Part shown: piece after piece, positions 9,177-26,234 of the stretch
Layout of the letters: each line of letters begins with the position of its first letter
Position numbering within the stretch: position 1 is the first letter of the stretch
Assembly: GCA_021785125.1 (NCBI GenBank)
Contig: JAJYGF010000004.1
Location: forward strand, 3,124-67,123
Reading direction: 5' to 3'
Length of the DNA: 64,000 nucleotides
Origin: a bacterium
GTDB taxonomy: Bacteria > Patescibacteriota > Minisyncoccia > Moranbacterales > UBA2206
Program-made: the position numbers and the translations under genes
The notes under the pieces: model-generated
Database searches by the model: none
What the model was told of the DNA's origin: nothing
The model's input: the letters and a program-made list of their open reading frames with translations, nothing else

Positions 9177-10280
9177 TTAGTTTCCGCAACTGGCCGAACC
9201 GGAACCGGACGATGACCCGGATCCGCCTCCGAAGCCCGGTGACGGAGATGTTGAAGACAATGTTTTGCTGCACGCGGCCGGTTGATTGTTGAACGCGCCG
9301 CAGATGGTTTTCAACAGACTTTCCGGATCGCGATTGGCTTGCGCTTGGACTCCGTTGATCACCAATGTTGGCGAACCCTGCACGCCATATTTTACATTAT
9401 CATCTTTATTGACATTGAATGGAGGAAATTGTCCGACCCAAGTACTTTGATCGTTCCAATCTTTGGTCACATCATATTGATTGTCGGTCTGGGCCGCACA
9501 GCTTGAAACTTGCGCGGCATTGATGCCGGCAGAAGCCATGCAACTCGCTTCGTTTCCTTGCCCTTTTTCCAAAAAGCACGCCAGATACGCATCCAGCTTC
9601 TGCGGCTGATTTTTTTCGATGCAGTATTGCCTAAGATTTTCGTCCAGCTCTTTGCGGTCGTTTTTGCTCTTGTCATTATGCATGGAGTAATCCACGAATT
9701 CCAAGGTAAATTTTATCTTGGAGCCCAACGCGTCCAAAACCGGAAGAAGGCCTTTCTCCATCTGCGTCCCGTAAGGGCAATAGCTCATGACGAATAATTT
9801 CACGTCCGGCACATCCGATTTCGGAACGGGCTGTTGGGCCTGCGCCGCCTGCTCTGGGTTGCTCTGATTTTGCGCCGCCGCCGCGATATCCATCGCATTC
9901 GGGAAGAATGTCTTGCCGTCCTGGGTTATGTAAGTGTCTATATCCTGTCCGCCGACCGTAATGGTTACTTTATACAGACTCCCCGCCTTGGATACGTTTT
10001 TCACGTCCACTTTCGTCCCGGGTTGGACCAGATTGCCGCTCACAAAATCAACCACATCTTTCTTGGCCGCCGCCGATCCGATGTCGATCGGTCTGTTTTT
10101 GATGTAATATGCCGCCGCACCCACGATAATCAGTGCGATGATAGCAATAATCAGTCCTCCCTTGCCGCTCCGCTTAAGCTCGAACCTCTTCTTTCTATGA
10201 TGATGAACTGCAGCAACTTTTTCAGGTTCTTCGACTTTTGCTCCGCCTTCGCTGATCGGAGTGTTTTTTTCTTCCGTCAT
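9177..10280 (-). CDS. membrane-anchored thioredoxin-fold (DsbA-like) protein
   Basis: N-terminal TM; VMSYCPYGTQ thioredoxin-like CxxC-type motif; Gly/Ser-rich C-terminus. Confidence 0.55.
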   Translation of the reverse strand: MTEEKNTPISEGGAKVEEPEKVAAVHHHRKKRFELKRSGKGGLIIAIIALIIVGAAAYYIKNRPIDIGSAAAKKDVVDFVSGNLVQPGTKVDVKNVSKAGSLYKVTITVGGQDIDTYITQDGKTFFPNAMDIAAAAQNQSNPEQAAQAQQPVPKSDVPDVKLFVMSYCPYGTQMEKGLLPVLDALGSKIKFTLEFVDYSMHNDKSKNDRKELDENLRQYCIEKNQPQKLDAYLACFLEKGQGNEASCMASAGINAAQVSSCAAQTDNQYDVTKDWNDQSTWVGQFPPFNVNKDDNVKYGVQGSPTLVINGVQAQANRDPESLLKTICGAFNNQPAACSKTLSSTSPSPGFGGGSGSSSGSGSASCGN

Positions 10281-10340
10281 ATTTTTTTAGAATTTATTTA
10301 CTCGTTCATTCTACACCTTCATCTTGTTTTATACAATCGA

Positions 10341-12302
10341 CTATCTTATTTGCAACTTTCGCAGCTCCGTTATTTCATCCCGAATGACGGCGGCCCGCTC
10401 GAATTGCATGGCCTTGGCCGCTTCTCTCATCTCCTTTTCTTTCTGTTTTATATAACCTCTGACATCTTCCAATGATTCCAGTTGTGAGAAATCTCGCGTA
10501 ATTTGAGGCTTGATTTCATGATCAACTATGGATTTTATGTTTTTGCGGATAGTTCGAGGCGTGATCCGATGCTTTCTGTTGTATTCCAACTGGATGGCGC
10601 GGCGGCGACCGGTCTCATCGATAGCTCGCTTCATTGATCCTGTCATATTATCCGCATAGAGGATGACCCGGCCGGAAACATTTCTGGCCGCCCGTCCGAT
10701 CGTTTGGATGAGCGACGTCTCACTACGCAGAAAACCTTCTTTGTCGGCGTCTAAAATAGCCACTAAAGAAACTTCCGGAAGATCCAATCCTTCCCGCAAA
10801 AGATTGACTCCTACTAAAACATCGACTTCGCCCTTGCGCAAATCCTCCAGTATGCTTATCCTATCCAAAGTTTCGACTTGCGAATGCAAATACTGTGCCT
10901 TTATTTTGTTTTCAAGCAGAAATTCAGTCAGGTCTTCGGCCATTTTTTTGGTCAGAGTCGTTATCAGGACTCTTTCTCCCTTGGCAATCACCACCTTAAT
11001 CTCTTCAATCACATCCTTAACCTGTCCTTTCGCCGATTTAACGATCAGCTCTGGATCGATCAATCCAGTCGGACGGATTATTTGTTCCGCGATCAATGTC
11101 GAATGTTTATTTTCATATTCCGCCGGCGTGGCAGAAGTAAAAATAAGCTGATTTATTTTTGATTCAAATTCCGGAAATTTCAGAGGCCGGTTGTCAAAAG
11201 CGCTCGGCAAGCGGAAACCGTTTTCAACCAAAGATTTCTTTCTGGAATAATCTCCGTTATACATTCCGTTCAATTGGGGGATGGTCACATGAGATTCATC
11301 GACAACCATCAAAAAATCGCCGGGGAAATAATCGATCAATGTGTACGGCGCTTCGCCCGGATTCCTTTCCGTCAGGTAGCGCGAGTAATTTTCTATGCCG
11401 TTGCAATAGCCGATTTCCCGCATCATTTCGATGTCCTGCCGCGTCCGCCGTTCCAGTCTTTCCGCCTCCAAAAGCTTTCCGCCATTTTTGAAATATCTGA
11501 TACGATCTTCTAATTCTGCTTCTATTTTTTTTAAAGCATTCTCCATGACCGGTTCGGGCACCATAAAATGCTTGGCTGGAAAAATCACAGTTTTGGAAAG
11601 CCGCTCCGATTCTTCGCCCGTCAAAAAATCATAATCGAATATTTTTTCGATTTTTTCTTTTTCCATCTCGACGCGCGTCACAATTTCTCTGGCCGGCGAC
11701 ATTATTTCGATCGTATCGCCGATCAGTCTGAATTTGCCGCGGGATAAAATGTCCGAACGCGCATATTGCATGTCGACCAATTTCCTCACGATTGAATCCC
11801 GATCGATTTTTTGACCGACGGACATTTCAAAAGTGATGTCGCGATAATAATCCGGCGAGCCTAAACCGTAAATGCAAGAAACCGAAGCCACAATGATAGT
11901 ATCGCGCCGCGCAAGCAGCGCAACAGTCGAAGCATGGCGCAACCGGTCGATTTCATCGTTTATCTGCGATTCTTTTTCAATGTAGGTGTCGCTGGAAGCG
12001 ATATAGGCTTCCGGCTGGTAATAATCGTAGTATGAAACGAAATATTCCACCGCGTTTTTCGGGAAAAATGTGCGGAACTCCTGCGCCAATTGCGCCGCCA
12101 AAGTCTTATTCGGTGCGATGACCAAAGTCGGCTTCTGCACTTTTTCGATGACATTCGCGATCGTAAATGTCTTGCCGCTGCCTGTCACGCCCAAAAGTGT
12201 CTGAAATTTGTTTCCCGCCTTGATGCCTTTCGCCAGTTTATCAATCGCCTGCGGCTGGTCGCCTTGCGGCTCATATTTTGAAGAAATTTTAAATTTGGCC
12301 AT
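10341..12302 (-). CDS. uvrB: excinuclease ABC subunit B
   Basis: GVTGSGKT Walker A, helicase motifs, C-terminal UVR domain ([13 protein letters not shown]). Confidence 0.95.
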
Positions 12303-16605: not shown

Positions 16606-16809
16606 AAAGCATCTAAGCTTTCTTCATTAATTATTCCGTTCCGGGCGCTTGAAACAATAAACGACTTTCGGCTTGCTTTGGTCAAAAGCGATCTTATTGT
16701 TTGCGGGACGGAAAATTCACTCGATTTTGAGCTTTACATCTTAAAATATTAAAAAAAATAATAATCCGTTTTCTTTGTAGAATCATAGACACAGACCGGA
16801 TAAAAAATT

Positions 16810-18531
16810 ATGATAAGAAGACCGAGTTCGCTTTCGAGCGAGCAAGCAAGACGCAATTATTCCAAAGACAATTTACGCATAATTCCTCTGGGCGGGCTAG
16901 AGGAGATCGGGAGAAACATGACCGTATTCGAATACGGCCAGGACATAATCATCGTCGACATGGGGCTTCAATTTCCCGATGAAGACATGCCGGGAATCGA
17001 TTACATTATTCCCGATGTCACCTACCTCCAAGGAAAAGAAAAAAAGATCCGCGGAGTATTGATCACTCACGGACATTACGACCACATCGGCGCCATCCCG
17101 CATCTCATGGAAAAATTGGGCAATCCGCCGATATATATGACCGAATTGACCCGCGGCATTGTCATCAAAAGACAGGAAGATTACAAAGACAAAGCGCCGC
17201 TCAATATCCATACGGTTAAAAAAATCGACAGGATCCGCCTAGGCGCTTTCAACATCGAATTTTTTCATGTCAATCACACCATTCCGGATGCCGTCGGCCT
17301 GGCTATCACGACGCCGGTCGGAACAATCGTGCATACTGGAGATTTCAAATTTGATCATTCGCCGATTTCCGATGCTCCGGCCGACGTAGCTAAAATCGCC
17401 AGATTAGGAAGCGAGGGGGTATTGGCCCTGATGTCAGATTCGACCGACTCGCAAACTCCGGGCTATTCGCTTTCGGAATCAAAAATCGCCGTAACACTGG
17501 ATGAGATATTTCAGAATACCCAAGGCAGGCTTATCATCGCCACATTCTCCGCCCTTATCAGCCGCATCCAGTCAGTCGTAGCCGCGGCGGAAAAACACGG
17601 CCGCAAACTAGCTGTGGACGGATATTCCATGCGCACCAATGTTGAGATTGCCAGAGCGTTAGGCTACTTGCAAACCAAAAAATCAACCTTTATTCCGATC
17701 AATAAAGTCAACGACTATCCGGACAATAAAGTGGCTATCATCTGCACCGGAGCGCAAGGCGAAGCCAATGCGGTTCTCATGCGGATCGTTTCCGGCGAAC
17801 ATCGGTTCGTAAAGGTCCACAAAGATGACACGTTTGTTCTGTCTTCGTCCGTCATTCCAGGCAATGAAAGAACCGTCCAAGCCATCATGGACACCATCTA
17901 CAGAAAAGATGCCAAGGTCATAAACTACAAAATGATGGACGTTCACGCCGGAGGACACGCCAGACAGGAGGATCTGAAAATGATGATCAATCTTCTGCGG
18001 CCCAAGCATCTTATCCCTATCCACGGAAATTATTACATGCTGAAACTACATGGGCAGCTGGGAATTTCCGTCGGCATGGATCCGAAAAACATATTGATAG
18101 GAGAAAACGGCAGAGTGATAGAATTCGATTACAGGGGCAATGGCAAAGTCACGGAAGAAAAGGTGCCAACCGAGCATATCATGGTGGACGGCTTGGGTGT
18201 CGGCGACATCGGACAAGTCGTCTTGCGCGACCGCCAAGTACTGGCCAAAGACGGCATGTTTACGATCATAGTGATTATCGATTCAAAGACCAAGAAAATC
18301 ATCGGCAAGCCGCAAGTGACTTCCCGAGGGTTCATTTTCGTCAAAGAAAATTTTGACCTGGTTAATGCCACAAAAAAGAAAGTCGAAGAGATTGTAGAAA
18401 AAACCACTTCGCCCGATACGGCCGTCAACTGGGATTACGTCAAAAACAATATTCGTGAAACGGTCGGATCATATCTCTATTCAAAGACCCAGAGACGTCC
18501 GATGGTCTTGCCGGTCGTGATCGAGGTATAA
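16810..18531 (+). CDS. rnj: ribonuclease J
   Basis: Metallo-beta-lactamase HGHYDHIG motif, beta-CASP region, 573 aa. Confidence 0.9.
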   Translation: MIRRPSSLSSEQARRNYSKDNLRIIPLGGLEEIGRNMTVFEYGQDIIIVDMGLQFPDEDMPGIDYIIPDVTYLQGKEKKIRGVLITHGHYDHIGAIPHLMEKLGNPPIYMTELTRGIVIKRQEDYKDKAPLNIHTVKKIDRIRLGAFNIEFFHVNHTIPDAVGLAITTPVGTIVHTGDFKFDHSPISDAPADVAKIARLGSEGVLALMSDSTDSQTPGYSLSESKIAVTLDEIFQNTQGRLIIATFSALISRIQSVVAAAEKHGRKLAVDGYSMRTNVEIARALGYLQTKKSTFIPINKVNDYPDNKVAIICTGAQGEANAVLMRIVSGEHRFVKVHKDDTFVLSSSVIPGNERTVQAIMDTIYRKDAKVINYKMMDVHAGGHARQEDLKMMINLLRPKHLIPIHGNYYMLKLHGQLGISVGMDPKNILIGENGRVIEFDYRGNGKVTEEKVPTEHIMVDGLGVGDIGQVVLRDRQVLAKDGMFTIIVIIDSKTKKIIGKPQVTSRGFIFVKENFDLVNATKKKVEEIVEKTTSPDTAVNWDYVKNNIRETVGSYLYSKTQRRPMVLPVVIEV

Positions 18532-18544
18532 AATAACCAAAGTA

Positions 18545-18567
18545 AAAACCGGTTAGCCGGTTTTTTT
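18545..18567. terminator. bidirectional intrinsic terminator
   Basis: aaaaaccgg tta gccggttttttt. Confidence 0.7.
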
Positions 18568-18580
18568 GTATGAATAAAAT

Positions 18581-19282
18581 TTACCTTCCCAAAACGATCA
18601 CAATGTTCGCGCTTTTTTGTTCGTCCGTCTGCGCCGGCCCCACCGTGGAAGAGACTCTTCTGCCGGTCAATAGTTGGTTTATTTTATTCGCTTCATCCTT
18701 AAATTTTTCGTCGGTATAATAGATAAAATTACCCGCCACACTTGAGATTTCGCCATTGCCCGCCTCCGCCTTAGCATAGCCCTGCGCCACCAAAACATTT
18801 TTTACCTTTCCGGCCAATCCGGATTGCGCCCCTTCATTCAAAATTCTCACCGCAATGTCGCTCGGTGAAATAACGGCAGAGGTCTTGGTTGGTGCTTGTG
18901 ACAACTGCCCTCCAATTGAAGCAACGGGAGATACGGACGACTGGAAATTTCCCGTCGCGATTTTTTGGTCCGCAATCGCAGACCTTATCGCGTCTGCCAT
19001 AGAAGCTTTGGAGTTGGTTGCCGGTCGCCTGCTTTTTTTGAAATGATAATAATAAATGGCACTGGAAACGACAAGCAAAATAACCAATAACAACAGAAAA
19101 ATCCAGATCGCCTTATTTCCGCCGGCCGGTGCTTGCTTCTTATTGTTTCGCCCAAATTTATCTATGGCGGCTCCATCGTTTTTTTTCGGATTTCTTTTTT
19201 GGCGCGGATTTTCCAAAACTGATGCTTCGGTCTTAGCGCTTAGAGCATCGGCTTTATTTTTTATTTTTTTAATTTCTTGCAT
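18581..19282 (-). CDS. membrane-anchored protein with LytR_C-like C-terminal domain
   Basis: N-terminal charged region + TM; C-terminal VKNVLVAQGY...IVIVLGR resembles LytR C-terminal domain. Confidence 0.5.
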   Translation of the reverse strand: MQEIKKIKNKADALSAKTEASVLENPRQKRNPKKNDGAAIDKFGRNNKKQAPAGGNKAIWIFLLLLVILLVVSSAIYYYHFKKSRRPATNSKASMADAIRSAIADQKIATGNFQSSVSPVASIGGQLSQAPTKTSAVISPSDIAVRILNEGAQSGLAGKVKNVLVAQGYAKAEAGNGEISSVAGNFIYYTDEKFKDEANKINQLLTGRRVSSTVGPAQTDEQKSANIVIVLGR

Positions 19283-20639: not shown

Positions 20640-22031
20640 CTATAAATAGAACTTTTTTAACATGCTCAGATACTCGGGTATTTCTTTTGCCACTTTTTTG
20701 ACAGCATTATGTCCGAATATCCCGATGAAAAAATAATCGAGATTCAGGCGTATCCCATGGCGCAAAACATAGCCCCAGGAGTAGAATTTTTCCAACGCGG
20801 CGATGACTGAATTCTGCATTTGCTCCGGAGTCATACTTGCTGGAAGAAACACGACATGCTGACCATCATAACTACCCCACCTCCTGTGCAAAATCATCCC
20901 TTCGTTGCTCATCTGCTTATAAAGCTGAGTACCGGGCAAGGGCGTAATCAGCATAATTTGGATCGACTGCAAGCGCTTGCGGGCAAACCGGGTAATTTCC
21001 AACGCCGTTTTTGCATCGTCGGTATTCGCGCCGACGATGAACATCCCATGGATATCAATCTTTCTTTTGCGTATTTCTTTAATCGCTGACTCGATGTCTT
21101 TCACGGTTTGCTTTTTGTTGTAGGCGTCCAGAGTTGCCTGACTTACCGACTCAAAGCCAATAAAAAGCGTCCGTACCCCTGATTGAGCCAAAAGATCCAG
21201 AAGTTCAGGATCCTTGGCAACATCTGCTCTGACCTGTGCAGAGAGACTTATGTTGAGGTTTTCTTCGATTATCCTCCTTGATAACCGAGCTGTCCGTTTT
21301 CGGTTCGCAGCATAGTTATCGTCGATGATGAAAAATTTCCTATAGCCCAGATCATATGCATACCTGAGCTCGGAAATAACAGCATCATCGGAGCGGAAAC
21401 GCATAGCCCGGCCAAACATCGCCGTCACCGAACAGAAGTTGCACTCAAATGGACATCCGCGTGAAGTAGCGATCGGATAATGCCTTATCTTTTGATAGCC
21501 CCTCACTAACGTAATATCCATCATAGGAATTTCATCAAGGTCCGGCGTCAGTTCGCGATCTTTGTTCCGATATGTTTCACCCCTATGTCGGAACGACAAA
21601 CCATCAATGGATTTAAGTTTTGCGTAAGCATCCTTAAACATGGACGGTGCCATAAAATACTCGACGAGCTCCATGATGGTCTTTTCTCCTTCTCCGCGTA
21701 CCACAAAATCACAATGAAGCAACGCTTCATCAGGCAGAAAAGTCACATGGGGTCCGCCCATAACCACGATCTTCCCTATACTTCGCAGTTGATCTGCGAG
21801 CGCATAAGCCCTTTCCGCCGTCGGAGTAATCGTTGAGATGCCGATGATATCAAAATCCATACGGTTAATGTCAATCGGCACCAAATCCTCGATAAAAACT
21901 TCTGTTTCCAACGCGTTCCCATGTTTCAATCGCAGCAAGGTTGCCATCTCGATTATCCCGCGCCTGGGAATGGGAAATTTCTTAAAGAAATGCACGCCTG
22001 GAGAGCTCGGTTCAACAAATGCAAACTTCAT
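20640..22031 (-). CDS. B12-binding domain radical SAM protein
   Basis: N-terminal cobalamin-binding-like domain; ATSRGCPFECNFCSV CxxxCxxC radical SAM motif. Confidence 0.85.
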   Translation of the reverse strand: MKFAFVEPSSPGVHFFKKFPIPRRGIIEMATLLRLKHGNALETEVFIEDLVPIDINRMDFDIIGISTITPTAERAYALADQLRSIGKIVVMGGPHVTFLPDEALLHCDFVVRGEGEKTIMELVEYFMAPSMFKDAYAKLKSIDGLSFRHRGETYRNKDRELTPDLDEIPMMDITLVRGYQKIRHYPIATSRGCPFECNFCSVTAMFGRAMRFRSDDAVISELRYAYDLGYRKFFIIDDNYAANRKRTARLSRRIIEENLNISLSAQVRADVAKDPELLDLLAQSGVRTLFIGFESVSQATLDAYNKKQTVKDIESAIKEIRKRKIDIHGMFIVGANTDDAKTALEITRFARKRLQSIQIMLITPLPGTQLYKQMSNEGMILHRRWGSYDGQHVVFLPASMTPEQMQNSVIAALEKFYSWGYVLRHGIRLNLDYFFIGIFGHNAVKKVAKEIPEYLSMLKKFYL

Positions 22032-22127
22032 CGTTTTATTCCTTTCAAAAGAGGGTTTATATTTTCAAGATTTGTTCATCATTTGATTTTTAAGCAGCTT
22101 ATACCAATTTCGCACCATATCCGCCCT

Positions 22128-23672
22128 ATGTCAATTAATGCTATAATAAAATCAATGAATAATCTGACAAAACTTTTAAAAAACTTCAAAACAAACCCGG
22201 ACATCTGGTTTTTTTATGGCTTTTTGGCAACCTTCACTCTTTCTATCCGGAAAGTCTTATTTTTTTACCCAATACACGGACAGTTCAATGAGTATTCCGG
22301 GATCTATCTTTATCTAAGCGATATATTTCTAATCTTAGCCTTCATAAGCCATTTTTTTAAATTATACAATAATAATTATAATTTGTCAATAAAAAAAGGG
22401 GGTCGGGTTACATTATCAAAATTGTTCCACGTGGAACAATTATTTTTTATGCTTATCATTTTAGCCTTTTTTTCCTTATTTTGGGCCTCAAACAAAAACG
22501 TCGCGGTTTTTGGATCATTAAAATTACTGGAATTGTTCTTACTTGTTCTTTATGTTTCACGTAGAATTGTTCCACGTGGAACAATTCTGAAAAATTCTTT
22601 CGGGCTGATAATTATTTTCGGATTGATTCAATCCATCATAGGCATCTGGCAATTTATCATCCAACATTCGATTGGATTTTTTTGGCTGAAAGAAAGCCTA
22701 ATCTCACCAAGCATCTCTGGAGTTGCCAAATTAGTCTTTGGGGGAAACAAAATGATCCGTGCCTACGGCTTGTTTCCACATCCCAATATTCTGGGCGGTT
22801 TTTTGTTGGTTTCCATAATTCTAACATTATCAAGCCAAAAAATGTTCTGCACCCATCCAGAAGGAAAAAAATGTTCCACGTGGAACATTTTTTCTTCCGC
22901 AAAGATGAATCAACGTGCGCTTTGGATCATTACTCTGATTCAAATAGTCGCGCTCCTTCTGACATTTTCAAAATCAGCCATGATGGGACTCATAGTTAGT
23001 TTGACATACATATTTGTTCCACGTGGAACAAATTGGCGAAATTTGACCAGGGTTGCAAAAAATGTTCCACGTGGAACACAAAAACAGCTCTTCTTGGCAG
23101 GACTGATTATTCTGGTACTGACATATTTATTCCATCCAAGCACTAATTCTTTCATAACCAAGTCGATCCAAGATCGTTTATTCTTAACAAATGTTTCACG
23201 TGGAACAATTTTGTCTAATCCAATATTTGGCTTAGGCATAGGACAATTCGTAATTGATATGCAAAGATACTATTCCAACAAACTTTTGGATTGGCAGTTT
23301 CAACCTGTCCATAACGTGTTTATCCTAATTTGGGCAGAATTAGGGCTGATCGGACTGCTAATTTTCATCATTCTACTGTGGAAAATGTTCCACGTGGAAC
23401 ACAAACTCGGAACAGACACAAAATGTTCCACGTGGAACATTCCTTTTGAAGCAGAGCATTTATCAATTCCAAATAACAAGACAAATGTTCCACGTGGAAC
23501 AATTCTCAACTCACAAGACATCCAAGTGGCCTTCAAAGGAATCTTGCTTGGATTTATCTTCATCATGCTTTTTGATCATTATTTCTGGGATATCCAGCAA
23601 GGAGAAATAATGTTTTGGCTTGTTATAAGTATTATTGTTGGACTAGAACCAAAAAGTACTATTGACAAATAA
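22128..23672 (+). CDS. O-antigen ligase/polymerase (Wzy_C)-like polytopic membrane protein carrying multiple in-frame palindromic insertions
   Basis: Many TM segments; LTFSKSAMMGLIVSL resembles Wzy_C core; start moved to MSINAI after the convergent radical SAM gene; peptide segments CSTWN / VPRGT / FHVEH are translations of the same 16-bp palindrome in three frames. Confidence 0.6.
   Translation: MSINAIIKSMNNLTKLLKNFKTNPDIWFFYGFLATFTLSIRKVLFFYPIHGQFNEYSGIYLYLSDIFLILAFISHFFKLYNNNYNLSIKKGGRVTLSKLFHVEQLFFMLIILAFFSLFWASNKNVAVFGSLKLLELFLLVLYVSRRIVPRGTILKNSFGLIIIFGLIQSIIGIWQFIIQHSIGFFWLKESLISPSISGVAKLVFGGNKMIRAYGLFPHPNILGGFLLVSIILTLSSQKMFCTHPEGKKCSTWNIFSSAKMNQRALWIITLIQIVALLLTFSKSAMMGLIVSLTYIFVPRGTNWRNLTRVAKNVPRGTQKQLFLAGLIILVLTYLFHPSTNSFITKSIQDRLFLTNVSRGTILSNPIFGLGIGQFVIDMQRYYSNKLLDWQFQPVHNVFILIWAELGLIGLLIFIILLWKMFHVEHKLGTDTKCSTWNIPFEAEHLSIPNNKTNVPRGTILNSQDIQVAFKGILLGFIFIMLFDHYFWDIQQGEIMFWLVISIIVGLEPKSTIDK
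22431..23501. repeat. cluster of 9 copies (plus one half-site) of perfect palindrome TGTTCCACGTGGAACA, often extended to AATGTTCCACGTGGAACATT
   Basis: Copies centred near 22440, 22576, 22880, 23022, 23070, 23200 (1 mismatch), 23394, 23432, 23494; irregular spacing; all inside one CDS. Confidence 0.9.
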
Positions 23673-23801
23673 TAAATTTATGTTTTAATTTGCGTTACCC
23701 AGAGGAAAGCCAAAGGCTATAGATCCCAAGCCTTGCAAAATCCGAAACGTAATAGACAAAATAAAAAACGAGCTTAATGCCCGTTTTTATTTTGTAAAGT
23801 T

Positions 23802-26234
23802 TTATAAGACCGTTGTTGCCGCTACCTTATCTCCGGATTGCGGCCTCATCACTCGCACTCCTTGAGTTGCGCGCCCCAAGACCGAAACACTCTTCAAAGG
23901 AATTCTGATTATCTGACCTTTCTGCGAACTCAAGATCAGATCTTCTTCGATCTCATCTGTATTCATAACATTCGCTCCTATGACATTTCCGGTTTTGGAC
24001 GTAACATTGGCAGTCTTAATTCCCGAACCTCCGCGCTTTTGAACCTTATATTGCTTGAGATCGGATCTCTTTCCATATCCATTTTCAGTTATAATCAAAA
24101 GTTGGTTTCCTTTTTGATTTTTAAATATGGCGTCCATGCCGACAACCTTATCATCTTTTCGTAATTTTATTCCGCGCACGCCAGCCGCGCTTCTTCCCAT
24201 CGGACGAACATCTTTTTCTTTGAAATGGATGGCCTGGCCCTTGGCTGTTGTAATAATGATTTCATCTTCTCCCGTGGTCGCCTCAACCCACCGTAACATA
24301 TCCCCAGCCATCAATTTGATTGCGATAAGACCAGACCTTCTGACGTTGCTGAAATCATCCATGGGGGTTTTCTTTACCGTTCCGATTTCGGTTGTCATAA
24401 AAAGATACTTGAAATTATCTTCTTTGCTGAATGGAATGATAGCCGTTACCGATTCTTCCTGGGATAACTGGAGAAAATTTACAATAGATTGGCCCTTGGC
24501 AACACGGGAAGAAACCGGAATTTCATAGGCCTTTGTTTGAAATACTTTTCCCGAATTGGTAAAAAACAGCAGATCATCATGCGTCATGACTGCCAAAACT
24601 TTCTTGATCGTATCTTCTTCCTTGGTTGTGGCACCGATCACCCCTTTGCCTCCGCGCTTCTGGACTTTATATACGGAAGGGTCCATCCGTTTAATATACC
24701 CTTGTTCCGTAATGGTTATGATAGCCTCCTCATTCGGAATCAAATCTTCCTGCTTGAACTCTCCGACGCCTGATTTTACTATCTTGGTCCTTCTTTCATC
24801 GCCATATTTTTCTTTTACGCGAACCAATTCGCTTTTGACTATACCTAGAATCATTTTTTCACTTTTCAAAATAGATTCGAGCTCTTTGATAAGCGCCACC
24901 TTTTCTTTCAATTCATCCTCGATCTTCTTTCTTTCCAAGCCTGCCAAGGTTTGCAGCCTCATCTCCAAAATTGCCGTGGCCTGTCTTTCGGAAAGTTTGA
25001 AATTTTTCATCAGGTTCGCATGAGCAATCTCTTTTGTCTGCGATTTTTTGATTGTTTCTATGATTGCATCTATATGGTCCAGGGCCTTTTTTAATCCTTC
25101 CAGGATATGAGCCCTGTCTTTGGCCTTGTCCAAATCGAATTGAGTTCGACGAGTAACGACGGATTTTCGATGGATGATGTAATATTCCAAGATGGATTTC
25201 AAATTCAAAACCGACGGCTCGATCCCATCTACAAGCGCCAGCATGTTTACGCCGAAATTTTTCTGCAGATCGGTCAATGAATATAACCTGTTCAGCACTT
25301 TTTGCGGATAAGCGTCCTTCTTCAAATCGATTACCAGACGCACGCCATCTTTGTCCGATTCATCACGTATATCTTTAATGCCGACAATTTTTCCTTCATG
25401 CACCAATTCCGCGATTTTTTCAATCAAAGCCGCTTTGTTGGTCGCATAGGTCATTTCAGTGATCATAATTTGAAAAGCGCCGGCTTTTGTTTCAACGATA
25501 TCCGCCTTGGCCCTGGTCAATATCTTGCCACGACCCGTTCTATAAGCTTCAATAATGTCATTTTTATTGTATATTACGCCTCCGGTCGGAAAGTCAGGTC
25601 CTTTTACAAACTCAACAAGATCTTCGATCGATGCTTCAGGGTTATCTATTAAATATGATATTCCGTCGATCAGCTCTCCCAGATTGTGCGGAGGAATGTT
25701 TGTCGCCATACCGACCGCGATTCCCATACTTCCGTTCAAAAGAAGCTGCGGCAAATTTGACGGCAAGACGGTCGGTTCTTTGTGTTGGCCGTCGAAATTA
25801 GGCACGAAATCAACAGTATTTTTTTCTATATCAATCAGCATTTCTTCCGCAATTGAAGAAAGCTTGGCTTCAGTATAACGATAAGCTGCCGCTCCGTCTC
25901 CATCCATCGAACCGAAATTTCCCTGTCCTTTGACCAGCGGGTAACGCAGAGAAAAGTCCTGCGCCATGCGTACCATGGAGTCATACACCGCCACATCTCC
26001 GTGCGGATGATATTTGCCAAGAACTTCTCCCACAACTGTCGCGGATTTTCTGAATTTTGCATTGGATCGCAAGCCGGTATTCCACATGGAATATAAGATT
26101 CGGCGATGAACCGGCTTCAATCCGTCGCGCACATCCGGCAGGGCGCGCGAAACAATGACGCTCATTGCGTAATCAAGATACGATTGAGCGATTTCTTGGG
26201 TTATTTCTTTTGAATTTATATTTCCTATTTCCAT
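23802..26234 (-). CDS. gyrA: DNA gyrase subunit A
   Basis: AAAYRYTEA active-site Tyr region; C-terminal beta-pinwheel with GyrA-box-like QKRGGKG. Confidence 0.9.

Follow-up and report, generated by a model that had tools for sequence, protein, structure and literature searches.

Nine copies of a parS-type palindrome form a putative centromere array inside one membrane-protein gene of a Patescibacteria bacterium

Introduction

Why should a single membrane-protein gene carry the same short palindrome nine times over? The question is raised by a 64,000-nucleotide stretch of contig JAJYGF010000004.1 (assembly GCA_021785125.1; the whole stretch is called the window below), in which one open reading frame (ORF) for a polytopic protein of the Wzy_C/O-antigen-ligase family is studded with the 16-bp sequence TGTTCCACGTGGAACA. 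An initial annotation, made from the letters alone, had likened the repeats to Rickettsia palindromic elements (RPEs), selfish sequences that insert in frame into genes, and had offered two alternatives, an operator array for a dimeric regulator and a substrate for recombination or phase variation. The comparisons described here lead us to a different reading. Very probably, the nine palindromes are parS sites that make up a ParABS chromosomal centromere, a 1.1-kb array lodged in those stretches of a functional Wzy_C-family gene that encode extramembrane loops.

Nine palindromes lie in one open reading frame

We searched the window for the 16-mer with mismatches tolerated and took the chance expectation from dinucleotide-preserving shuffles. 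Eight exact copies of TGTTCCACGTGGAACA were found, against 0.00 expected from the shuffles, and a ninth site proved to be the single-base variant TGTTTCACGTGGAACA (Table 1). The initial annotation had counted nine perfect copies; the number of sites stands, as eight exact copies plus one variant. It had also seen none elsewhere in the 64 kb, and this was borne out with up to two mismatches allowed; nor was there a copy in the approximately 10 kb that continue past the window's right end. The sites are packed into 1.1 kb (22423 to 23501) at irregular spacings of 38 to 304 bp. The first of them begins at 22423 rather than at 22431, where the array had been taken to start, while the end of the array at 23501 holds. 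There are 17 instances of the 8-mer half-site in the gene and two outside it, where about one would be expected by chance. What had been described as an additional half-site is an extra degenerate sequence, the relic TGTTTCACGTAGAATT, which abuts site 2.

All nine copies do lie within a single forward-strand ORF, as first reported, and the palindrome, read directly off the sequence, contains no stop codon in any frame. The ORF runs through the copies in three phases, which yield the peptides CSTWN, VPRGT or VSRGT, and FHVEH or FHVEQ. The same nine sites are present in three independent assemblies, namely the NCBI metagenome-assembled genome (MAG) GCA_027428215.1 and assemblies from ENA and Logan. 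An AAAA...TTTT extension of the palindrome, also described earlier, exists as a tendency and is not fixed: at 470 sites in orthologues the frequency of A was 0.58 to 0.91 at positions −4 to −2, and T was enriched at positions +1 to +4. An Rfam search returned only sub-threshold microRNA-like hairpin matches, which were produced by the palindromes themselves. The guanine-plus-cytosine (GC) content dips locally to 0.364 at 22001 to 24000, compared with about 0.44 across the window, and the dip coincides with the array gene.

Table 1. Positions in the window of the parS-type sites, their host gene and the neighbouring gyrA gene
Feature	Position	Strand	Sequence	Encoded peptide	Remarks
Wzy_C/O-antigen-ligase-family polytopic membrane protein	22128..23672	+			514 amino acids; databases start at 22155, giving 505 amino acids
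parS 1	22423..22438		exact TGTTCCACGTGGAACA	FHVEQ	
Degenerate parS relic	22553..22568		TGTTTCACGTAGAATT	VSRR	abuts site 2 on its 5' side
parS 2	22568..22583		exact	VPRGT	loop after transmembrane helix 4
parS 3	22872..22887		exact	CSTWN	low-confidence loop 232-248
parS 4	23015..23030		exact	VPRGT	
parS 5	23063..23078		exact	VPRGT	
parS 6	23192..23207		variant TGTTTCACGTGGAACA	VSRGT	still fits consensus TGTTNCACGTGNAACA
parS 7	23386..23401		exact	FHVEH	end of a transmembrane helix
parS 8	23424..23439		exact	CSTWN	disordered loop 419-449
parS 9	23486..23501		exact	VPRGT	disordered loop 419-449
gyrA	23802..26234	−			convergent with the host gene; context, outside the array

The host gene is intact and its loops carry the sites

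The host ORF matched the Pfam family Wzy_C (PF04932) at 49.8 bits, above the cut-off of 31.7 (E = 4e-13). Its 505-amino-acid form is 100% identical to a database protein, P0001, that is present in MAG GCA_027428215.1 and in the ENA and Logan assemblies; the exact 514-amino-acid form is absent from database records. P0001 has hundreds of orthologues at E < 1e-100, annotated as Candidatus Moranbacteria, Parcubacteria or Patescibacteria, and the host organism is a bacterium of the Patescibacteria, or candidate phyla radiation (CPR), near the Moranbacteria. We compared the gene with two orthologues, L131 and L004, which share 79% and 51% amino acid identity with it. The gene is intact, and outside the parS codons the ratio of nonsynonymous to synonymous divergence (dN/dS) was 0.22 against L131 and 0.19 against L004. 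With both values close to 0.2, the gene is functional and under purifying selection.

The protein has about 11 hydrophobic segments by hydropathy and is all-helical in its structural model. Seven of the nine parS-encoded peptides fall in hydrophilic loops and the other two at the edges of hydrophobic segments. The AlphaFold model is of moderate confidence, with a predicted local distance difference test score (pLDDT) of 61.9, and served for loop and helix placement only. Its low-confidence stretches are residues 72 to 85, 232 to 248 and 419 to 449; the last two hold three of the sites, and most of the others are at helix ends. In alignments with parS-poor orthologues, the array loops differ in length. 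Alignments, hydropathy and model agree in placing the peptides in variable hydrophilic loops or at helix ends, which is in keeping with the earlier idea that they are loop insertions. The conserved blocks of the protein (YGLFPHPNILGGFLL, LLTFSKSA, WQFQPVHNVF and MLFDHYFWDIQQG) are free of parS.

Two further Wzy_C paralogues of 382 and 418 amino acids are encoded in the same genome (L127, positions 16786 to 19165). They lie approximately 6.8 to 9.2 kb past the window's right end, adjoin glycosyltransferase genes and contain no parS, which leaves a single paralogue as the bearer of the array.

The palindrome matches the ParB-binding site parS

Searching the full-text literature for the exact 16-mer string produced matches solely in papers on bacterial chromosome partitioning. 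The sequence TGTTCCACGTGGAACA is that of parS2 and parS3 of Pseudomonas aeruginosa (PMC4368675, Table 1), and the parS of Pseudomonas putida is the same 16-mer. In Myxococcus xanthus the site is TGTTCCACGTGGAACG, present 22 times, and TGTTNCACGTGAAACA is the general parS consensus (PMC7022226). Set against this consensus, eight sites of the array coincide exactly with P. aeruginosa parS2 and parS3, and the ninth has a T at the N position. Judged by their sequence, then, the nine palindromes are copies of parS, the canonical binding site of the partition protein ParB.

We also scanned other phyla, taking one genome per species, for two exact 16-mers spaced 20 to 50 nt apart. At least 120 loci were recovered and, among the matches listed, these span the Acidobacteriota, Bacteroidota, Verrucomicrobiota, Bacillota, Pseudomonadota, Planctomycetota and CPR. 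By tblastn, a spo0J/parB gene lay within the same 8 kb in 50 of the 120 listed loci, and a soj/parA gene likewise in 50 of the 120. In an Acidobacteriaceae MAG (L119, positions 1027 to 2761), 14 parS sites sit directly upstream of soj-spo0J, 13 of them within 1.2 kb of apparently non-coding DNA. Because the 16-mer is identical to published parS and is associated with parAB across phyla, we regard it as a ParB-binding centromere site and not as a new repeat.

Dense arrays similar to that of the Acidobacteriaceae MAG, mostly non-coding, were seen in four further loci (L072, L071, L089 and L064). A Verrucomicrobia MAG (L114, positions 2692 to 2841) has four exact parS sites in its gidA/mnmG ORF, which is enlarged to 745 amino acids; this is another in-frame parS array in an origin-region gene.

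Selection acts on the DNA of the sites

Among five orthologues with available DNA, the parS-type pentapeptides were encoded by GTTYCACGTGRAAC in 47 of 47 cases. Between the window and L131, none of the 32.7 synonymous sites in shared parS codons had changed, whereas the proportion of synonymous differences (pS) was 0.34 elsewhere in the gene. Against the more distant L004, synonymous divergence was 0.063 in parS codons and 0.69 outside them. Since synonymous change is almost absent from parS codons yet high elsewhere, the constraint that maintains the sites takes no account of the genetic code, and selection at the DNA level overrides codon choice.

Reading phase leaves its own mark. The three phases were used 224, 118 and 104 times over 446 sites. 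The variant GTGAAACA, which is of the Bacillus subtilis type and would create a TGA stop codon in the CSTWN phase, was found at 0 of 104 sites in that phase and at 27 of 342 sites in the other two. Coding does no more than filter which parS variants are allowed.

Site 6 encodes VSRGT, a peptide that is variable in parS-poor orthologues and, for that reason, is no protein-level motif. On the same ground we rejected the idea that VSRGT was a catalytic motif from which the array had been seeded.

Across relatives, parS is confined to one gene family

How widely is the array shared? Among the 120 best homologues of the protein, parS-encoded pentapeptides are present in about 105, at up to 10 exact ones per protein. 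The peptides are spread over about six loop regions, and orthologues differ in how many they have and in the phase used. At the position of site 2 a parS-type peptide occurs in 69 of the 120, and the position of site 6 is the most widely conserved (87 of 120). Because this search starts from shared words, which could bias it toward proteins that contain parS, we repeated the survey at the DNA level with parS-independent motifs, identifying relatives in metagenomes by FDHY[LF]WD and YGL[FM]PHPN.

The best 80 of 273 relatives, representing 74 distinct genes, were analysed; they were ranked by similarity to P0001, which may slightly inflate the parS counts that follow. Of the exact TGTTYCACGTGRAACA sites, 472 were in the orthologous genes, which add up to 152 kb, and a single one was in the flanking DNA, which adds up to 711 kb, so the array genes are about 2,000-fold richer in parS than their surroundings. 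At least one parS was present in 79 of the 80 genes (median 5, range 0 to 14), and most sites occupy the same few loops across orthologues of 35 to 80% identity. In these loci, parS is confined to this one gene family throughout a whole lineage of the CPR.

The parS-poor orthologues are instructive. In L006 (positions 10001 to 11440) synteny with gyrA has been lost, and the sole parS-like site is the degenerate TGTTTCACGTAGAACA, whose offset within the gene equals that of site 2 in L004. This and other parS-poor proteins (P0035, P0041, P0054 and so on) have the decayed peptides VPCGT, FHMEH, CSAWN and VSHET in the same loops. Such sequences point to an ancestral array that is eroding in some lineages, which may have relocated or lost their centromere.

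A MAG labelled Bdellovibrionales, with a GC content of 34%, contains a 513-amino-acid ORF with 8 parS sites (L069, positions 724 to 2262). This ORF has no Pfam match and is clearly homologous to the window's Wzy-like protein. Either the contig is mis-binned CPR DNA, or this gene, array included, may exist beyond the CPR.

Relatives carry nested palindromes, which bear on the idea of a selfish element

In L131, the counterparts of sites 1 and 3 are each split exactly between CAC and GTG by an insert (positions 1618 to 1690 and 2105 to 2180). Both inserts are in frame, add a net 42 nt and bring a new parS, and their arms, CCCCGTATAA and TTATACGGGG, are mutually reverse-complementary, so that a palindrome is nested within a palindrome. 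Because the insert swaps one full parS for another, nesting leaves the number of full sites unchanged, and L131 and the window both have nine.

The same cassette, TGTTCCAC/CCCAGnA..(parS)..TACGGGGCARGC/GTGGAACA, recurs in approximately 20 orthologues, with a net length of 42 or 54 nt, in both orientations and in up to four nested layers. In its most elaborate, "onion" form it can be written as (TGTTCCAC + 11 nt)n (parS) (15 nt + GTGGAACA)n, with n up to 4. The example in L172 (positions 2125 to 2320) is a palindrome of approximately 185 nt with a DNA minimum free energy of −48.6 kcal/mol; it is translated through in frame, and every 19+23-nt layer rotates the reading phase. Onion palindromes also occur in L211, L168, L178 and L193. 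The junction motif CGGGGCARGYGTGRAAC was found 76 times inside array genes but neither in their flanks nor in non-CPR loci, and a scan of viral contigs for the cassette junction gave two chance matches only, without parS.

A second kind of cassette, of about 110 nt and containing three parS sites, occupies three different loops in L004 (positions 10680 to 10790, 10959 to 11070 and 11379 to 11490). Its sites are spaced 41 and 50 nt apart and it encodes the peptide ..FHVE[HQ]..KCSTWNNSQCESYTIAKNVPRGTF. Its presence in three loops indicates that this cassette spread by duplication or gene conversion within the gene. The nested patterns as a whole would fit slippage or gene conversion at half-sites combined with selection for the reading frame, and would also fit insertion targeted to the centre of parS. 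Whereas these relatives have in-frame cassettes of 42 or 54 nt, the window's own sites mostly lie in loops of similar length.

Could the palindromes then be selfish, copies of an RPE-like or miniature inverted-repeat transposable element (MITE)-like sequence that multiplies itself in frame, with the 16-mers as its functionless cores? The cassettes of the relatives are what such an element might leave behind: they sit at the exact centre of older parS sites, in both orientations and four layers deep, and L004 has one of them in three loops. A self-copying element would nevertheless have to stay inside one gene, as both the parS sites and the cassette junctions do, and would gain no full site by nesting. 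Its core would have to coincide with a known functional site, and the loops shared between orthologues would have to persist where synonymous sites are saturated. The window's nine sites, moreover, are plain 16-mers without cassette arms. We therefore consider a selfish origin very unlikely. For the window, the comparison with RPEs made in the initial annotation finds no support, given the confinement to one gene, the shared loops and the identity with parS; what survives of it is that relatives do have in-frame, parS-centred cassettes.

Operators, phase variation and peptide motifs explain the sites poorly

A second possibility is that the array serves a transcription factor other than ParB, for example a reader of the CACGTG core, which controls the Wzy-like gene or gyrA. 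Perfect dyads would suit a dimeric DNA-binding protein, the sites are conserved beside gyrA in approximately 40 related loci, and no ParB was seen nearby. The sites, though, are intragenic and spread over 1.1 kb instead of standing at a promoter; all 16 positions are invariant and equal to parS, well beyond CACGTG alone; the 16-mer keeps company with parAB across phyla; and no regulator gene is conserved next to the array. An operator array of this kind is very improbable. The earlier proposal of operators for a dimeric regulator was right in so far as these would be binding sites for a dimeric protein, but ParB is a centromere and SMC-loading protein (SMC, structural maintenance of chromosomes) and not a classical operator regulator.

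We give still less credence to the proposal that the repeats are a substrate for recombination or phase variation, through which in-frame deletions and duplications remodel a surface-polysaccharide enzyme. Repeat-mediated insertions and deletions have occurred over evolutionary time, as the 42-nt units and the 19+23-nt layers attest, and the number and phase of the sites differ between orthologues. By contrast, nine contigs from several samples encode an identical protein, and the sites are identical in the three assemblies, which leaves this part of the initial annotation without support. Repeats that merely recombine, moreover, need neither equal parS nor stay invariant at 16 positions.

That the protein needs the peptides, with the palindrome as a by-product, has next to no chance of being correct: the peptides do recur in many orthologues, but the same DNA gives three unrelated peptides in its three phases, the codons are invariant (all 47 pentapeptides, and not one synonymous change in the codons shared with L131), and parS-poor orthologues have decayed, variable peptides yet keep the conserved catalytic-type blocks. 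Between them, the phase and codon results refute it.

A proposed intragenic centromere array

We return to the reading that we prefer, a ParABS centromere inside the Wzy_C-family gene. In well-studied bacteria, ParB dimers load at parS as clamps dependent on cytidine triphosphate (CTP), spread, contact ParA and recruit SMC (PMC8494293, PMC9449133, PMC7022226). By analogy with these systems we infer that ParB is the reader of the sites in the window. The array would be the genome's sole or principal centromere. Each 16-bp parS would be bound by ParB dimers, which would then shut into CTP-dependent sliding clamps and move out onto the neighbouring DNA, and nine nucleation sites within 1.1 kb would give rise to one dense partition complex. 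This complex would be segregated by ParA, if ParA is present, and would load SMC condensin. The array may have come to lie in a gene because compact genomes offer little intergenic space, and because the loops of this host protein tolerate CSTWN, VPRGT and FHVEH. A further reason may be that it grows and shrinks locally by duplication, slippage or gene conversion among its own repeats.

Several observations weigh against this reading. We ran Pfam on 40 window ORFs of at least 150 amino acids, every long non-overlapping one included; we used the B. subtilis Spo0J, Soj and DnaA sequences as tblastn queries against the window and all loci; and we built hidden Markov models (HMMs) from 10 ParB and 10 ParA sequences of other phyla and ran them on 1.03 Mb of CPR loci. 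ParB, ParA and DnaA were found by none of these searches, neither in the window and the approximately 10 kb past its right end nor in 1.03 Mb of DNA that extends up to 10 kb from the arrays of about 90 related loci. In other phyla, such parS clusters usually adjoin parAB, unlike the CPR arrays. DnaA boxes occur at chance level in the window, with no cluster, and cumulative GC skew falls monotonically across it, with no turning point. Given the lack of a dnaA gene, the chance level of boxes and the monotonic skew, no origin is evident within the window.

A broader reading extends to the lineage. In the Moranbacteria and related Parcubacteria, one Wzy_C gene might be the dedicated carrier of the centromere through deep divergence, unlinked to parAB and holding essentially all parS sites of its neighbourhood, and it might be remodelled by parS-cored cassettes that nest at parS centres in 19+23-nt layers and onions of about 185 nt. 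We put this forward tentatively and think it, in its full form, rather doubtful; if true, it would describe a centromere that grows by the nesting of palindromes inside an expressed gene.

Comparison with known systems

The nearest match in sequence is with P. aeruginosa and P. putida, whose parS sites include the identical 16-bp TGTTCCACGTGGAACA and likewise form a small, clustered set. Of the roughly 10 Pseudomonas sites, 4 are found near oriC, distributed over kilobases and close to parAB, whereas the window has nine sites within 1.1 kb of one coding gene and no parAB within 10 kb. Half-sites (GTTCCAC and GTTTCAC) are also bound by ParB in these species (PMC7022226).

The array resembles the clusters of M. 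xanthus (22 sites), Streptomyces coelicolor and Corynebacterium glutamicum in that many near-identical parS sites in one region nucleate one ParB complex (PMC7022226), as they would be expected to do here. It differs from all three in lying within a single ORF, at approximately 8 sites per kb and in the same gene family throughout the lineage. In M. xanthus, S. coelicolor and C. glutamicum, by comparison, the cluster extends over some tens of kilobases or more, across many genes or intergenic regions.

That parS can coexist with coding is known from B. subtilis, in which spo0J carries a parS in its coding sequence, read as NVPRET, and the site is translated as protein, as in the window. In B. 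subtilis a gene holds a single site, against as many as 14 here, in three phases and with variants shaped by the avoidance of stop codons.

Density of the kind seen here has a counterpart in sopC of the F plasmid, which consists of 12 tandem 43-bp repeats, each with a 16-bp SopB site. Both hold about ten dyads of the ParB-family type within approximately 0.5 to 1 kb. The sopC repeats are non-coding, regularly spaced and beside sopAB, unlike the window's array, which is coding, chromosomal and irregularly spaced (38 to 304 bp), with no parAB within 10 kb. The sopC locus is the subject of PMC3597684.

With RPEs the array shares the tolerance of palindromic DNA in frame in surface or loop regions, and the nested cassettes of the relatives resemble insertions. 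It is unlike them in being built of a 16-bp functional site confined to one gene and not dispersed over unrelated genes and intergenic DNA. RPEs are about 100 to 150 bp long and scattered across many genes, and no binding function is known for them.

A search of the literature on parS or ParB in Patescibacteria, CPR, Parcubacteria and Saccharibacteria found nothing relevant. parS itself is textbook knowledge, and dense clusters and intragenic parS are already known; it is the organisation here that is unusual. A lineage that keeps its whole cluster, of up to 14 sites, in one membrane-protein gene, unlinked to parAB and with nested palindromes, appears to be unreported in the literature searched.

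In MAGs of the CPR, a group whose chromosome biology is almost unstudied, the array provides an easily searched sequence by which to recognise the partition locus. It is also a clean natural case of dual coding, in which a protein and a dense protein-binding array share the same DNA and the constraints on each can be measured. The questions that it raises concern the uncoupling of parS from parAB, transcription through a ParB complex and the persistence of long nested palindromes in an ORF.

Genomic neighbourhood

The gyrA gene that converges on the host gene (Table 1) is a conserved neighbour, being downstream of the array gene in approximately 40 related loci. The window also encodes a B12-binding radical S-adenosylmethionine (radical-SAM) protein, a class I (Tyr/Trp-type) aminoacyl-tRNA synthetase, RNase J and a metallo-β-lactamase (MBL)-fold hydrolase. 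Further neighbours are the gene for S1, cmk, tilS, ftsH and a gene for a XerC/D-type recombinase.

Toward the right end, the segment 52765 to 62821, which continues into L127, contains an AbiEii toxin gene. At the corresponding place, L127 has further genes annotated as toxin-antitoxin genes, for a Polbeta/NTP_transf_2 nucleotidyltransferase and HepT. The toxin genes are followed by a type-IV-secretion-like cluster (TrbL-like, PrgI, TraC-like and a VirB4/TraG-type ATPase) with several large ORFs that match no family.

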